A stretch of DNA of 64,000 nucleotides, from sequence record NC_111505.1; one strand, 5' to 3'. This DNA comes from a phage. Below the pieces are notes generated by a model that ran no database searches, was not told the origin of the DNA, and saw only the letters and a program-made list of their open reading frames with translations. The translations under genes were made by a program, and so were the position numbers. Shown piece after piece: positions 43,059-57,849 of this stretch. Within the stretch, counting starts at the first letter, position 1; every line of letters begins with the position of its first letter.

Positions 43059-44049
43059 GCAGACAGGATTATCGAATCCTTATATTCAAAGGTGGTCGCA
43101 ACACCACCCTCCGCACCATTACGTGCTGCTGCATGTTACCATGCAGAGTAGACTATATCACCACCCATCTCAGGGTGCTTCGCTTTTCGAGCGCCATAAG
43201 CTTGCGCCCTACTCCCTCTCGGGATAGTCGTTGAACTACATTACCAATCGTAATTGTTTGAAATATAGGTGTAAGTCTTACGGTCTTTTATTCCTTTAAC
43301 AACACTAAAACTTACACCCCACTTTTTAGCTATTTTATTTACACACAAAACCCTATCACTGAGATCTTCGCAGATACCTATTATCTTGTGCTCACTTATC
43401 CTATTAGAGGTTGGCACTTTTCTAAAGTTAAACTCTTTAGAAATATCCGGGTATACTGAGCCATTCTTTATACCACTTACAAGCGGTTGATTGACACCAA
43501 ACATTTCACAAATGTCTTTTACCCTTGCACCTTGCTCTAACAGTCTACATATTTCAAGGGCAGTAGCATCATCTAGGGACCTGTATTTATTGACATAGTC
43601 CTTTTTAAGTCCCATTTCATGAGCATGATGTGTGTTTTCCTCAGGTGTTGTCCACTCAAGGTTCCATGCGGCGTTATTTAACTTATTGCCATCAAGGTGA
43701 TTTACTTGAGTTTTCACGCTAGGATTATCATTATCAACAAAAGTCATAGCAATAACTCTGTGAACGAGCACTTGGAACTTTTTACCGTCCTCGCACAAAG
43801 TTACCATAGCATAGCCAGTCTTTTTCTGCACATTAGGATGGAGGAATTTATTAGAATACAGACTGTAAATTCTGCCATCGTATGTAGCACAATAATGATT
43901 GTAGCCTAAAAAGCCTAAATTTTTCATTTCAAACATCTCCCTACTACAGGTTCGGAAGGGTAATTATAGCTGCTGATTGTCCGTTTAGCAATCGGATTTT
44001 CCAGCAATTAACGAAGTTATTCGACGTGCATTTCTGCACGAAGCCACTA
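43059..44049 (-). mobile_element. intervening sequence in terL carrying the HNH ORF (candidate group I intron)
   Basis: About 990 nt separate the ATPase and nuclease ORFs; flanks 43059-43240 and 43937-44049 are GC-rich with multiple hairpins and no long ORF. Confidence 0.5.
43241..43936 (-). CDS. HNH homing endonuclease (231 aa) inserted within terminase large subunit gene
   Basis: HNH motif (VNHLDGNKLNNAAWNLEWTTPEEN...HH) plus C-terminal DNA-binding-like region; flanked by the two terminase halves. Confidence 0.8.
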   Translation of the reverse strand: MFEMKNLGFLGYNHYCATYDGRIYSLYSNKFLHPNVQKKTGYAMVTLCEDGKKFQVLVHRVIAMTFVDNDNPSVKTQVNHLDGNKLNNAAWNLEWTTPEENTHHAHEMGLKKDYVNKYRSLDDATALEICRLLEQGARVKDICEMFGVNQPLVSGIKNGSVYPDISKEFNFRKVPTSNRISEHKIIGICEDLSDRVLCVNKIAKKWGVSFSVVKGIKDRKTYTYISNNYDW

Positions 44050-44799
44050 TCATTTAATGGTTGCGCCTATAAACGAGAATGACAACGGTCTTGGCTTGAT
44101 TTCCACACCTAGTCCATTGACCGTGGTGTATTTCTCTATTAACTCCTCTTTAGAGTCTCCCCAGATAAACTCACCGTCGCGTCGGATAAAATATCTTTTC
44201 TTACCACATTTCTCCGGATCTGGATACCCTTCATCGTCCAACCACCACCTAACCAGTTTGGCAAGCATGTGTTCTGAGTCGGGGTTACAACTGATAACCA
44301 TTCTTGATGGATACTTTGACTGAGATCGCAGACGAGACATCAAATAGTCTATCTGCTCCCATTCGAATTGCGTGCCTTCATCGAAGCAAACCATGGTGTA
44401 CTCAAGGCCTTGATGGTTAAGCTTATCTTGGACATACTCCATGTGGCAGTATTTTACAACAGCCCCCTTTTTGCTCCTGTCCCACTTGCCAGTGCTCGGA
44501 TCAAACCGTGGAAAAATAAATTTATGATCCTTCTCTCTAAATTTTGGCTTGATGTTCTCAGGGAGATCGCTGTAGATAGCTACTGCTTTAGGCCATAGAC
44601 CTCCTTCACCCTCCAGCTGCGGGGTTGTTCTTCGGAACATAACCACAGAGCTGTGTGGGTCATCAATAATTTTAAGCGGCATCAACTGCAGGAGGAACGA
44701 CTTACCTGAACCAGCCGCACCACCAATGACAAGAATGTCTGCATCGTTTTCTAGGATCATCTTCTGCTTTTCAGAACACGGTCCGTAAATCTTAGACAT
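44050..44799 (-). CDS. terL: terminase large subunit, N-terminal ATPase domain (first exon-like segment)
   Basis: Walker A (VIGGAAGSGKS) and Walker B (MVCFDEGTQF); ends at TGA 44050-44052. Confidence 0.8.
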   Translation of the reverse strand: MSKIYGPCSEKQKMILENDADILVIGGAAGSGKSFLLQLMPLKIIDDPHSSVVMFRRTTPQLEGEGGLWPKAVAIYSDLPENIKPKFREKDHKFIFPRFDPSTGKWDRSKKGAVVKYCHMEYVQDKLNHQGLEYTMVCFDEGTQFEWEQIDYLMSRLRSQSKYPSRMVISCNPDSEHMLAKLVRWWLDDEGYPDPEKCGKKRYFIRRDGEFIWGDSKEELIEKYTTVNGLGVEIKPRPLSFSFIGATIK

Positions 44800-45495: not shown

Positions 45496-45534
45496 AACGA
45501 AAAAACCCCGCAGCTATACAGCTAACGGGGCGGG
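45496..45534 (-). terminator. terminator-like hairpin after ORF 45587-45856
   Basis: Minus strand CCCCG-(15-nt loop)-CGGGG followed by TTTTTTCGTTT. Confidence 0.4.
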
Positions 45535-45586
45535 TTAAAATTGAGTAACCTAAATAGATCGAAACTAACTAAAAGGAGACTAATAC

Positions 45587-45856
45587 TTATCGAGGCACTC
45601 GGTGGATGATTCTAACAGTAACTGCATTTTCATTCATCAAGTATGCATCTACATCTCTGTAAATATAAAACTTCTGCTCACTATCAACAACACAAGCTAC
45701 CGCCCCTTCAGAGTTGTCTTCAAAAAAGACCACCACTGCATCGCAGCTGAGTTCATGATATGACTCTCGAAGATTTACAGCCAGAGGATTGAAATCGTCA
45801 CGAAAATCTACAGTATTGGTTGGATTTACACGCTCTACAATTTTAAGTGTATACAT
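45587..45856 (-). CDS. hypothetical protein (89 aa)
   Basis: ORF track; terminator-like hairpin downstream. Confidence 0.3.
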   Translation of the reverse strand: MYTLKIVERVNPTNTVDFRDDFNPLAVNLRESYHELSCDAVVVFFEDNSEGAVACVVDSEQKFYIYRDVDAYLMNENAVTVRIIHRVPR

Positions 45857-45902
45857 TTTAAAGGTTCCTTTTGTGTGTATATGTTTAAAGTATAACTAAA
45901 GG

Positions 45903-45948
45903 TGGTCTCCACGGAGTGATTCGAACACTCGACCTCCTGATCCCAAAG
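45903..45948 (-). tRNA. 3' half of split tRNA-like gene: anticodon loop (UGG, Pro-like), variable loop, T-arm, acceptor 3' strand and CCA
   Basis: Minus-strand CTTTGGGATCAGGAGGTCGAGTGTTCGAATCACTCCGTGGAGACCA: T-arm GAGTG/TTCGAAT/CACTC, acceptor CGTGGAG, encoded CCA. Confidence 0.5.
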
Positions 45949-46290
45949 TTATGGTAGTTCTAAAAGTCCTGCATGTACGGCAGCATGACAATTTCTACAA
46001 AGTAATACACAGTTTTTAATTTCATTATCAATTCTTTGCAGACTCCAACCTCTCATTTGAGCAAATTTAGAGTCTTTAATTTTAGGATCTAAATGGTGAA
46101 TATCTAAAGAAACAATCCATTTATCGAACCCACAATTGATACATTTACCGCCTAACTTGTCTACAGCATACTGTCGTTTCTGCCTCCCAAGATTCATGGT
46201 GTACTCATTGTGACATTTCCCACATATAGTCTTTTTATGACCATAAAATTTACATGGATCTTCTTCCCCACAACGACTGCATTTGTGCAT
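45949..46290 (-). CDS. HNH endonuclease with Zn-ribbon (113 aa) lying between two halves of a tRNA-like gene
   Basis: CxxC...CxxC plus HNH motif (DIHHLDPKIKDS...NCVLLCRNCH); ATG at 46288-46290, stop at 45949-45951. Confidence 0.75.
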   Translation of the reverse strand: MHKCSRCGEEDPCKFYGHKKTICGKCHNEYTMNLGRQKRQYAVDKLGGKCINCGFDKWIVSLDIHHLDPKIKDSKFAQMRGWSLQRIDNEIKNCVLLCRNCHAAVHAGLLELP

Positions 46291-46300
46291 CTTTGATTAT

Positions 46301-46325
46301 CTCTACCAAGCTGAGCTACGCGGAG
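46301..46325 (-). tRNA. 5' half of split tRNA-like gene: acceptor 5' strand and D-arm
   Basis: Minus-strand CTCCGCGTAGCTCAGCTTGGTAGAG; acceptor CTCCGCG pairs with CGTGGAG of the 3' half (six Watson-Crick pairs plus one G-U). Confidence 0.5.
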
Positions 46326-46336
46326 TATTTATAATT

Positions 46337-46411
46337 TGGTGGCCCTGGGTGGAATTGAACCACCGTCTGGCGATTATGAGTCGCTTGCTTGAACCTTCCA
46401 GCTACAGGGCC
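46337..46411 (-). tRNA. tRNA-Met (anticodon CAU; initiator, elongator or Ile-lysidine not distinguished)
   Basis: Hand-folded cloverleaf: acceptor GGCCCTG/CAGGGCC, anticodon loop CTCATAA, T-arm GGTGG/TTCAATT/CCACC, CCA encoded. Confidence 0.7.
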
Positions 46412-46412
46412 A

Positions 46413-46488
46413 TGGTGCTGATGGCAGGACTTGAACCTGCAACCTATTGATTACAAATCAATTGCACTGCCAATTGTGCTACATCAGC
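46413..46488 (-). tRNA. tRNA-Thr (anticodon UGU)
   Basis: Acceptor GCTGATG/CATCAGC, D-stem GCAC/GTGC, anticodon stem ATTGA/TCAAT with loop TTTGTAA, T-arm GCAGG/TTCAAGT/CCTGC, CCA encoded. Confidence 0.75.
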
Positions 46489-46492
46489 AAAA

Positions 46493-46591
46493 GGTGCTAG
46501 GTGATGGAATCGAACCATCTATGTATTCAACGACTACCTCGTCTATTTTCAGGATTAAAAATCCTCGCCCTTGCCAAAGGGCTTACCTAGC
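46493..46591 (-). tRNA. atypical tRNA-like element (~97 nt), anticodon ambiguous (possibly UUU)
   Basis: Good acceptor (GCTAGGT/ACCTAGC), D-arm (GCCC/GGGC) and T-arm (GATGG/TTCGATT/CCATC), but anticodon arm is a near-palindrome (AGGATTTTTAATCCT) and about 30 nt lie between anticodon arm and T-arm. Confidence 0.4.
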
Positions 46592-46689
46592 GCAATATGT
46601 TGACCATGTGGCTAGTCGGCGATGACGACTGTAACATTTGATAATCCGGTTCTGCTTCCGGCTTTCGCTTAATTACAAGGTCAACAATG

Positions 46690-46780
46690 TGGCGGAGAGT
46701 AATGGAATCGAACCATCATCGAGTCATCCTCAACGGGACGGTTTTCAAGACCGCTTGAGCACCATTGCTCCCTACCCTCC
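46690..46780 (-). tRNA. tRNA-Ser (anticodon UGA), long variable arm
   Basis: Acceptor GGAGGGT/ACTCTCC, anticodon stem GCGGT/ACCGT with loop CTTGAAA, T-loop TTCGATT, CCA encoded; 91 nt. Confidence 0.65.
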
Positions 46781-46894
46781 TTTATAAATTACACTGATAA
46801 TGACACTGATTTTCGAGCAGTTAGTGACTAGTATAAACGACGATAAACATCAATGCCATTATCTGTATGATTTATGCATTTAAAAATATAAATT

Positions 46895-46981
46895 TGGTGG
46901 GGAGTGGTGGAGTCGAACCACCCGAGTCGCAATGACAATAGATTTACAGTCTACACCGCTACCTCTACGGGATAACTCCCC
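46895..46981 (-). tRNA. tRNA-Tyr (anticodon GUA), long variable arm
   Basis: Acceptor GGGGAGT/ACTCCCC, anticodon loop CTGTAAA, T-arm GGTGG/TTCGACT/CCACC, CCA encoded; 87 nt. Confidence 0.7.
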
Positions 46982-46985
46982 AATT

Positions 46986-47060
46986 TGGCACCCCGTACTG
47001 GACTCGAACCAGTGTCAACGGCTTAGAAGGCCGCTGCTTTATCCACTAAGCTAACAGGGC
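46986..47060 (-). tRNA. tRNA-Arg (anticodon UCU)
   Basis: Acceptor GCCCTGT/ACGGGGT (two G-U), D-stem GCTT/AAGC, anticodon stem GCGGC/GCCGT with loop CTTCTAA, T-arm ACTGG/TTCGAGT/CCAGT, CCA encoded. Confidence 0.7.
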
Positions 47061-47118
47061 ACTGGGTGGCTTTCTTTTACACCTGAGCCGCCAGAAAAGG
47101 TGGGAGACCATGTTTACA

Positions 47119-47147
47119 ATATTACACTGTTAAGCAAAGTTTGTCAA
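47119..47147 (-). promoter_or_regulatory. sigma70-like promoter upstream of tRNA cluster
   Basis: Minus strand TTGACA (47142-47147), 17-nt spacer, TAATAT (47119-47124). Confidence 0.5.
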
Positions 47148-47156
47148 GAAAATATT

Positions 47157-47495
47157 TTAACTATTGCCAACAGGCTGTATCTCTGTGGTAAATGGCATAA
47201 AAGGTGCTGGTTTTTCAGCCTCTTCTACTACCACCTCTTCCTCTTCACCAAACATCTCATCATATTCTTCCTGCATTCGGTCTGCCTTATCAAGGACATA
47301 CTCTGCAATGCTTTGACGAATATTTTGCTTGGTTTTCGGATCCAACATCAGCTCTCTTAAAACTTTGTGAGCTTCTGGAACCATCGCTATAAAAGATTCC
47401 TTCATATCAAGAATGTTCTTCTCTAGCTGAATGGCGTTGGACTCCTCTTTCAGAGGTCTGCCTCTACGGCGACGCTTTTTAGTTGTATCCGCCAT
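47157..47495 (-). CDS. hypothetical small basic/acidic protein with AT-hook-like motif (112 aa)
   Basis: Start ATG 47493-47495 preceded by GGAGGA; N-terminal KKRRRRGRP then acidic C-terminus; the ORF-track 5' extension lies in GC-rich non-coding sequence. Confidence 0.45.
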   Translation of the reverse strand: MADTTKKRRRRGRPLKEESNAIQLEKNILDMKESFIAMVPEAHKVLRELMLDPKTKQNIRQSIAEYVLDKADRMQEEYDEMFGEEEEVVVEEAEKPAPFMPFTTEIQPVGNS

Positions 47496-57384: not shown

Positions 57385-57849
57385 GTGGAAGACGGACGTT
57401 TAATGAAGTCTGAACGCAGGCTTATTGTGCAACTGATCCCAGAAACAGCTTGGTATAATAACCTCCGAAACGCTGTGAAGAAGAGTGAGTGGGATAAGAT
57501 CCGTAAGAAGTGCTACAGAGAAGCCAACTACACTTGCGAGGTGTGTGGTGGCAAAGGTAGCAAACACCCTGTGGAGTGTCATGAACTTTACACCTTCGAA
57601 GAGGGGGTGATCCGGCTTGTCGGACTGATAGCCCTGTGCCCAGATTGTCACACATCGGTGCATCCTGGGTTAGCAAATATCCGTGGGAAATATGCTCAGG
57701 CAGTTAATCAGTTGGCTAAGGTAAATAAGATCACTAAGGGCATGGCTGAAGCTTATTACCGAGACTGCTTTGCAGAGTGGCTGGAGCTTAGTAAAGTTCC
57801 GGAATGGAAGACCGACTTTTCGTGGATAGAGGGTTACCTTGATGGCTAA
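57385..57849 (+). CDS. HNH-like zinc-binding nuclease domain protein (154 aa)
   Basis: CEVCGG ... HPVECHELY ... CPDCH pattern; GTG start 57385 after GAGGAGG. Confidence 0.45.
   Translation: MEDGRLMKSERRLIVQLIPETAWYNNLRNAVKKSEWDKIRKKCYREANYTCEVCGGKGSKHPVECHELYTFEEGVIRLVGLIALCPDCHTSVHPGLANIRGKYAQAVNQLAKVNKITKGMAEAYYRDCFAEWLELSKVPEWKTDFSWIEGYLDG

Follow-up and report, generated by a model that had tools for sequence, protein, structure and literature searches.

What has happened to the tRNA gene in which an HNH endonuclease ORF is lodged in the phage DNA analyzed here, and can the two pieces on either side of that ORF still give rise to a tRNA? The locus occupies positions 45903-46325 of a stretch of 64,000 nucleotides (sequence record NC_111505.1; this whole stretch is called the window, and all coordinates refer to it). 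The window originates from a Vequintavirus, i.e., an rV5/FV3-like E. coli myovirus, and a 1.7-kb query with the locus showed 97.6-98.7% identity to Vequintavirus genomes. In annotated relatives, the locus is bordered by a small-ORF region on one side and by spanin/terminase/portal genes on the other, and every tRNA is numbered within a single cluster. In the records bearing the insert, the ORF is mostly labelled 'hypothetical protein', and the tRNA remnants carry no annotation. The features of the locus and its surroundings are as follows:

45903..45947, minus strand: 3' remnant of tRNA-Pro(UGG), nucleotides 33-77 of the gene, matching the intact gene of FV3 at 45/45 positions
45948..46300, minus strand: insertion of 353 nt in place of 7 nt (CGCCTGA) of tRNA-Pro, delimited by alignment with FV3
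45949..46290, minus strand: ORF of a 113-aa HNH endonuclease, stop codon included (Pfam PF01844, PHROG 2255)
46301..46325, minus strand: 5' remnant of tRNA-Pro(UGG), nucleotides 1-25 of the gene, matching the intact gene of FV3 at 25/25 positions
46337..47060, minus strand: upstream part of the tRNA array, i.e., Arg(TCT), Tyr(GTA), Ser(TGA), a 99-nt tRNA-like gene, Thr(TGT), and Met(CAT) (ARAGORN and Rfam)
47119..47147, minus strand: sigma-70-like promoter candidate, TTGACA-17-TAATAT

The split tRNA-Pro(UGG) gene was ancestrally the last of a seven-member tRNA array. The promoter candidate, which was picked by a consensus scan only (10/12 matches), lies upstream of this array and may serve as its promoter, and the tRNAs and the HNH ORF presumably share one transcript.

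The 5' remnant (minus strand, 46325-46301) reads CTCCGCGTAGCTCAGCTTGGTAGAG and comprises the acceptor 5' strand, U8 and A9, the D-stem 5' strand, the D-loop, and three of the four bases of the D-stem 3' strand. The 3' remnant (minus strand, 45947-45903) reads TTTGGGATCAGGAGGTCGAGTGTTCGAATCACTCCGTGGAGACCA and holds the anticodon loop UUUGGGA, the 3' strand of the anticodon stem, the variable loop, the T-arm, the acceptor 3' strand, and ACCA. The initial annotation of this DNA had recognized an acceptor 5' strand plus D-arm at 46325-46301, which stands with the reservation that the last base of the D-stem is lacking, and had read 45948-45903 as the remainder of a tRNA with the anticodon loop CU-UGG-GA. 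The latter reading is right from 45947 onwards; the loop is UU-UGG-GA, as C45948 already belongs to the insert. The complementarity of the two acceptor strands that it had described (7/7 pairs, one of them G-U) was confirmed.

An intact tRNA-Pro(UGG) gene is present at the homologous place of the FV3 genome and has the form CTCCGCGTAGCTCAGCTTGGTAGAG-CGCCTGA-TTTGGGATCAGG...ACCA. The homologous position is likewise occupied by an intact tRNA-Pro(UGG) in Murica, LL12, nomo, and other phages, so that the comparison with relatives devoid of the HNH ORF, suggested in the initial annotation, yielded an uninterrupted gene. Because the two pieces are collinear with this intact gene, their resemblance to it is not a matter of chance. 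When the FV3 tRNA-Pro gene was compared with the 64-kb window using BLASTN, two matches were obtained, corresponding to the 5' and 3' remnants, with none elsewhere, and no second copy of tRNA-Pro was found across the window. The notion that the halves are left over from a duplication, or are unrelated fragments of tRNA-like sequence which flank the ORF by accident, was thereby already refuted by the comparative alignment and deserves practically no credence: the halves are collinear with, and in 70/70 positions identical to, one intact gene at the same position, their flanks are continuous on both sides, and the window holds no other tRNA-Pro from which debris could stem.

The conservation of the remnants was followed in 17 insert-bearing sequences, i.e., the window, six phage records, and ten genome/metagenome contig loci (among the latter, navn and 241Ecol014PP duplicate two of the six phage records). 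The 5' remnant was invariant in all 17 copies, and both remnants were identical to the intact gene in 70/70 positions in 15 of them. The sole variation of the 3' remnant concerned G45936 (the former G43), which is replaced by A in A147 and by T in L026.

The insert itself is composed of a 10-nt leader (ATAATCAAAG), the 342-nt HNH ORF, and a single terminal nucleotide (C), which leaves only 11 nt outside the ORF. Its junctions, ...GGTAGAG|ATAATC... and ...CCATAAC|TTTGGG, are identical in 17/17 of the sequences checked. The gap between the halves, put at about 350 nt in the initial annotation and described there as occupied nearly completely by a 113-aa Zn-ribbon/HNH ORF, measures 353 nt. The deleted CGCCTGA corresponds to C25 of the D-stem, G26, and the 5' strand of the anticodon stem (positions 27-31), and it is for this reason that the latter strand had been sought in vain next to either half.

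The tRNA has kept its acceptor strands, its T-arm, and the greater part of its D-arm, and phage group I introns do house HNH ORFs (the terL intron of the window among them); both facts would be in line with the 353 nt being a self-splicing group I-type intron with an HNH ORF, the splicing of which restores the tRNA. Such introns are carried by the tRNA-Leu(UAA) and tRNA-fMet of cyanobacteria. However, the 11 nt outside the ORF leave too little room for a group I core, as had been supposed from the beginning, and no match to RF00028, the Rfam model of this core, was found in the region 45500-47300 at E ≤ 10, whereas the group I intron of terL (44056-43078, same window), which served as a positive control, was detected by the same model (34 bits, E = 1.2e-6). 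An Rfam gathering scan of the whole window returned tRNAs only. In group I introns, the 5' exon usually ends with U and the intron with G; the terL intron obeys this boundary rule, and the insert in tRNA-Pro breaks it, since its 5' exon ends with G and the insert itself with C. Nor is the insertion precise, as 7 nt are missing in comparison with the intact allele.

Searches for a tRNA led to the same picture. Neither standard ARAGORN nor the Rfam tRNA model called a tRNA at 45903-46325, while the six neighboring genes were called, and so was the intact tRNA-Pro gene of FV3. Although the acceptor stem (7/7) and the T-arm are kept, the cloverleaf is incomplete: 353 nt stand in place of C25, G26, and the 5' strand of the anticodon stem. 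The intron mode of ARAGORN, which had been proposed as a check of this locus, returned a 'tRNA-Met(CAU) with a 335-nt intron', in which a CAAAG/CTTTG stem brackets the ORF and the D-arm is broken. Calls in this mode were also obtained with 365 of 400 shuffled inserts (91%) and with 351 of 400 random window segments (88%) placed between the halves, and the result for the true insert is therefore an uninformative artefact. Furthermore, 1369 in silico excisions around both junctions produced no tRNA-Pro among the calls inspected, almost all of which were 'tRNA-???' with 2- or 4-nt anticodons; re-insertion of CGCCTGA was the only edit that brought the tRNA-Pro call back. As these 7 nt (C25, G26, and 27-31) are gone, no excision can recreate tRNA-Pro, and the probability of a splicing intron at this locus must be considered very small indeed.

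The same missing nucleotides preclude a complete tRNA in the alternative case of archaeal-type assembly. Archaeal split or BHB-intron tRNAs exist, e.g., in Nanoarchaeum, and the split ones consist of two separated halves, to which the arrangement in the window bears a superficial likeness. Unlike these, the halves described here are incomplete (7 nt short) and lack complementary leader sequences, and no archaeal-type tRNA splicing endonuclease is known from the E. coli host. Consequently, of the two possibilities left by the initial annotation, an unusual split or processed tRNA finds no support and is rejected, given the deletion, the lack of a group I intron, and the non-specific ARAGORN call. 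Judging from the alignments, the tRNA-Pro of the window is dead, with no tRNA that could be regenerated, and the two pieces are best described as its recent, undecayed remnants, not as parts of a split or intron-containing tRNA.

If the tRNA was lost, the inserted gene was not. The encoded protein has a Cys4 zinc ribbon at its N-terminus and an HNH core with the pattern CxxC...CxxC. It matched the Pfam HNH family PF01844 with 23.8 bits (cutoff 21.4) and PHROG 2255, annotated as 'HNH endonuclease', with E = 5e-27; a search of PDB sequences gave no meaningful match. In a MAFFT alignment of nine homologous proteins (that of the window and eight others), residues C7, C23, C26, C50, C53, H65, H66, N100, C98, C101, H102, and H106 were invariant; the catalytic His/Asn/His residues and the CxxC zinc ligands typical of HNH (beta-beta-alpha-metal) endonucleases are therefore all in place. 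Against the nearest homologs (69-71% amino acid identity, MAFFT), dN was 0.26 and dS was saturated. The protein is 100% identical across 13/13 vequintavirus records with the insert, and the four variable sites found within the 353 nt are all synonymous (4/4; the share expected for random changes is about 19%, P about 0.001). The dN/dS contrast, the identity of the protein, and the purely synonymous polymorphism together indicate that the HNH gene is intact and under purifying selection.

The distribution of the insert among related phages was analyzed next to its sequence diversity. It is present in 13 phage records, compared with about 117 in which the Met-Pro-ORF arrangement is uninterrupted, i.e., approximately 10% of the sites are filled. 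The exact HNH protein was found on 18 contigs, and in ten of the ten places listed it occupies the tRNA-Pro site. The identical junctions, along with the occurrence of the exact protein at the same site, point to a single origin of the insert.

Among the filled genomes, the nucleotide diversity (pi) of the insert was 0.0043, versus 0.017 in the upstream and 0.031 in the downstream flank (4-7 times lower). Within -560/+600 nt of the flanks, no SNP was fixed with the insert, and for both SNP 46333 (-33) and SNP 45901 (+47) all four combinations with the presence or absence of the insert occur. Judged by the distances between their flanks, the insert-bearing genomes form no group of their own: the flanks of navn are closest to those of C7 (filled) and nomo (empty), and the flanks of A147 to those of phiWec193 and Murica, both empty. 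The insert has thus passed by recombination over diverged backgrounds, and the simplest reading of these data would be one insertion followed by a recent spread into such backgrounds by homologous exchange with very short tracts. A short-tract spread is the expected footprint of homing; ordinary recombination in mosaic phages could contribute to it, and the four-gamete pattern could result from the generally high recombination of vequintaviruses instead of nuclease-driven homing. It may be added that any drive is not overwhelming, since the insert is found in only about 10% of the sequenced relatives.

In this context, it has to be considered whether the HNH gene homes at all. It might never have done so, or do so no longer, being a fixed passenger or a domesticated nuclease (e.g., one associated with packaging or directed against competitors), the patchy occurrence of which reflects ordinary recombination. 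The visible mosaicism of vequintaviruses, the carriage of the gene by only about 10% of them, and its location approximately 1.1 kb from terL are all compatible with this view, which we nevertheless regard as rather improbable. The diversity of the insert, several times below that of its flanks in the same genomes, argues for a recent spread; the homologs are tied to tRNA arrays and not to terminases; and an essential packaging factor would hardly be dispensable, as it evidently is for the roughly 90% of relatives without the HNH gene.

The homologs of the protein in other phages, which share its zinc ribbon plus HNH architecture and show 37-71% identity (MAFFT), were inspected in eight genomic contexts, and in 8/8 of them, belonging to at least six genera, the gene was found in a tRNA array, three times beside tRNA-Pro(UGG):

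Phapecoctavirus DIJ07P2: 75 nt after tRNA-Pro(UGG) and 15 nt before tRNA-Ile
Salmonella phage Arash: end of the ORF 10 nt inside an intact tRNA-Pro(UGG)
Salmonella phage SE_PL: 9 nt before tRNA-Asn
Yersinia phage fHe-Yen9-03: after two tRNA-Pro(UGG) genes and tRNA-Val
Cronobacter phage CR3: between tRNA-Asn and tRNA-Glu
Pseudomonas phage PAK_P4: ORF extending 39 nt into tRNA-Lys
Felixounavirus SME50: between tRNA-Ile and tRNA-Ser
Yersinia phage fHe-Yen9-04: ORF extending 24 nt into tRNA-Ser

In contrast to the Vequintavirus copy, these members of PHROG 2255 are placed between tRNAs, or they reach up to or into the 5' end of an intact tRNA gene, so that among the homologs inspected the Vequintavirus copy is the sole interrupter of a tRNA gene. 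A shared target was sought in the tRNA-Pro genes adjoining the homologs; only universal tRNA positions were conserved, and hence no common target could be deduced.

The closest analogues of the insert are the T4 segB gene and the HNH-type heg genes of T5, and no description of the Vequintavirus insertion was found in the literature searched. The free-standing segB gene, coding for a GIY-YIG endonuclease, sits in the T4 tRNA gene cluster, and its product cuts inside tRNA genes of phage T2L, recognizing a T-arm motif; in crosses, segB is inherited preferentially, at nearly 100%, and takes flanking markers along (PMC2330249). The T5 endonucleases F-TflI/II/IV are cited in the same work as lying within the T5 tRNA cluster. 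Like the insert in the window, segB is a free-standing nuclease ORF which is embedded in a phage tRNA array and is polymorphic in its presence among close relatives; it is transcribed along with the array, as the insert presumably is. Unlike it, SegB belongs to another superfamily (GIY-YIG, not HNH), and its gene is placed between tRNA genes, none of which is split. Moreover, cleavage and homing were demonstrated for SegB, whereas the cleavage target and the homing of the HNH protein of the window are inferred.

The T5 genes hegA, hegC, and hegD (T5 record) are of the HNH type as well and likewise lie within the tRNA array of a phage. The 3' ends of the hegC and hegD ORFs overlap the neighboring tRNA, which in the case of hegD is a tRNA-Gln annotated as a pseudogene. 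In sequence, HegA shows only distant similarity to the window protein (32% identity over 65 aa, a weak similarity of the HNH core), and that of HegC and HegD is not significant. In addition, the Heg proteins are larger, with extra DNA-binding domains, and no heg gene is annotated between two halves of one tRNA gene.

Group I introns with homing endonuclease ORFs resemble the insert in that the ORF interrupts a gene and is polymorphic among relatives. The insert differs from them in having no ribozyme core, in the deletion of target bases, and in the impossibility of restoring the gene product; it also spans positions 25-31, while bacterial tRNA group I introns sit in the anticodon loop. For free-standing homing endonucleases, on the other hand, insertion into a gene and not beside it is atypical.

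The known systems bring up one further question, namely whether the remnants might have kept a function other than that of a tRNA. The segB mRNA is part of a tRNA precursor, which is thought to be cut during the maturation of tRNA-Arg, and a processing-linked control was proposed both for segB and for the T5 HEGs (PMC2330249). By analogy, the remnants could form a tRNA-like clamp (acceptor stem, T-arm, and encoded CCA) around the HNH mRNA, with RNase P and 3'-end enzymes excising the message; if true, the clamp would stabilize or throttle the endonuclease mRNA and constitute a natural 'tRNA scaffold' for an mRNA. Folding of the isolated 423-nt RNA predicted the acceptor stem with P = 0.93-1.0 and the T-stem with P = 0.98-0.99, both being present in the MFE and centroid structures, but the pairing probability of the acceptor stem dropped to 0.04 in a 689-nt context, and the fold of the whole molecule was no better than that of shuffled sequences (z = -1.26). 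It is also true that the remnants are unchanged in 15/17 copies, that both changes found spare the acceptor stem and the T-arm, and that ORFs of relatives end inside the next tRNA. However, the insertion is young (insert pi = 0.004), and its youth accounts in full for the unchanged state of the remnants. On the strength of these predictions, a functional clamp would seem quite unlikely.

Taking the evidence together, we consider that a free-standing HNH homing endonuclease gene split tRNA-Pro(UGG) and deleted 7 bp of it, that the tRNA is dead, and that the insert most likely spread by homing; the probability of this explanation is estimated at about 0.78. On computational grounds, the insert would qualify as a free-standing HNH homing endonuclease gene, as it shows a presence/absence polymorphism at one site and the low-diversity, flank-discordant signature of spread. 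The first of the two possibilities raised in the initial annotation, a tRNA gene recently disrupted by a homing endonuclease, is accordingly borne out by the intact gene in relatives, the presence/absence of the insert with identical junctions, and the 70/70 identity of the remnants in 15 of the 17 copies; neither unrelated fragments nor an intact tRNA elsewhere, named there as contrary outcomes, were encountered, as the halves are collinear and the window has no other tRNA-Pro. The course of events would then be as follows. The HNH ORF would be transcribed with the tRNA array from the array promoter, and in a mixed infection the enzyme would cut the intact tRNA-Pro allele of a related phage, or a site very near to it. 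The insert-bearing allele would be immune, the site being disrupted in it, and the cut genome would acquire the insert through recombinational repair, the co-conversion tracts being very short.

As a mobile nuclease gene that colonizes a phage tRNA cluster, the insert represents a fairly ordinary case. With regard to the annotation, the locus should be entered as a pseudogene of tRNA-Pro which an HNH endonuclease gene interrupts, and PHROG 2255 is flagged as an HNH family whose members, in at least six phage genera, are habitually found in tRNA arrays, in parallel to SegB of T4 and the Heg proteins of T5. The cost of the insert is the loss of the only tRNA-Pro of the phage. This cost may be real, as among the Pro codons of the phage 45% are CCU and 30% CCA (75% together); the filled phages are viable isolates, and navn was isolated on K-12 MG1655. 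Since both filled (navn) and empty (nomo, FV3) alleles are available in culturable E. coli phages, they create a convenient study system, suited to measuring homing, the length of co-conversion tracts, and the fitness cost of the loss of a phage tRNA. For the vequintaviruses, the finding would mean that a homing-type nuclease gene colonized their tRNA array at the expense of one of the genes in it, with no intron through which the loss could be made good.

The only changes in the tRNA-Pro remnants among the 17 insert-bearing copies were found at position 45936 (minus strand), the former G43, which was altered in two ways, i.e., G to A in phage A147 and G to T in a metagenome contig (L026). Both substitutions disrupt the Shine-Dalgarno-like hexamer AGGAGG, now unpaired, and this double change could be the result of either chance or selection. 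The majority of the insert-bearing records are "UNVERIFIED Campylobacter phage" entries (about a dozen, MG0656xx; C7, C9, A142, A147, and others), several of them near-duplicates of one another; they are approximately 98% identical to E. coli vequintaviruses and their Campylobacter host label is probably wrong.

The pentanucleotide CAAAG, located directly 5' of the HNH start codon (46291-46295, minus strand), is fully complementary to CTTTG, the 5 nt directly 3' of the HNH stop codon (45944-45948, minus strand), and the two are therefore predicted to form a short stem bracketing the HNH ORF exactly. It is the same stem that was used in the spurious intron model of ARAGORN, and a second CTTTG, a possible alternative partner of CAAAG, is present within the HNH ORF.

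HNH ORFs of phage tRNA arrays were repeatedly found to lack their own stop codon and to end within the downstream tRNA gene, with overlaps of 10-39 nt. The following ORFs terminate in the next tRNA:

1489-1827 of L005, a locus of another phage
1201-1611 of L023, a locus of another phage
829-1557 of L025, a locus of another phage
hegC and hegD of phage T5 (L036)

As these ORFs end within a tRNA, 5' processing of that tRNA would truncate the HNH message, a mechanism already proposed for segB of T4 (PMC2330249).

Another endonuclease gene of the window is localized within an intron of the large terminase gene:

43078-44056, minus strand, group I-like intron of about 979 nt within terL (Rfam RF00028)
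44799-44057 and 43077-42273, minus strand, terL exons
43241-43936, minus strand, 231-aa ORF inside the intron, encoding an HNH_3 and HTH endonuclease

The intron matched RF00028 with 34 bits (E = 1.2e-6), a score below the gathering cutoff, and its boundaries place U as the last exon base and G as the last intron base. The terL genes of FV3, Murica, and Phage 203 are uninterrupted, an intron is annotated in that of LL12, and in navn, nomo, and 241Ecol014PP the gene is broken differently, after approximately aa 143, with an "endonuclease VII"-like ORF.

A further ORF of the window looks, by motif resemblance, like another HNH-type protein; its tblastn match to the tRNA-Pro HNH protein is weak (E = 0.08):

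57385-57849, plus strand, 154-aa ORF with CxxC ... H ... CPDCH ... H motifs

The tRNA array also contains an atypical gene, kept across vequintaviruses:

46493-46591, minus strand, tRNA-like gene of 99 nt (ARAGORN, Rfam tRNA model)

Its anticodon loop carries UUU, as in tRNA-Lys, while the anticodon stem contains a mismatch and the extra arm is about 26 nt long; ARAGORN reported it as tRNA-???, the Rfam tRNA model gave 37.5 bits, and its annotation among relatives varies (tRNA-Lys, tRNA-OTHER, or Asp|Gly).

In 241Ecol014PP (L003, about 516-650), an additional 127-nt insert separates tRNA-Arg from tRNA-Tyr, and the adjoining tRNA-Tyr is strongly diverged, with no ARAGORN call. Acceptor pair 1 of tRNA-Ser(UGA) (46690-46780, minus strand) is G-C in the window but covaries among its close relatives, with FV3 having U-A and 241Ecol014PP having A-U; such covariation indicates that the phage tRNAs are still under structural selection. 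T4-like phages (Tequatrovirus and other T-even-like records) carry a tRNA-Met approximately 98.8% identical to that of Vequintavirus over 72-80 nt, and a tRNA-Pro with 91-95% identity, which suggests that tRNA genes have been exchanged between unrelated coliphage families.
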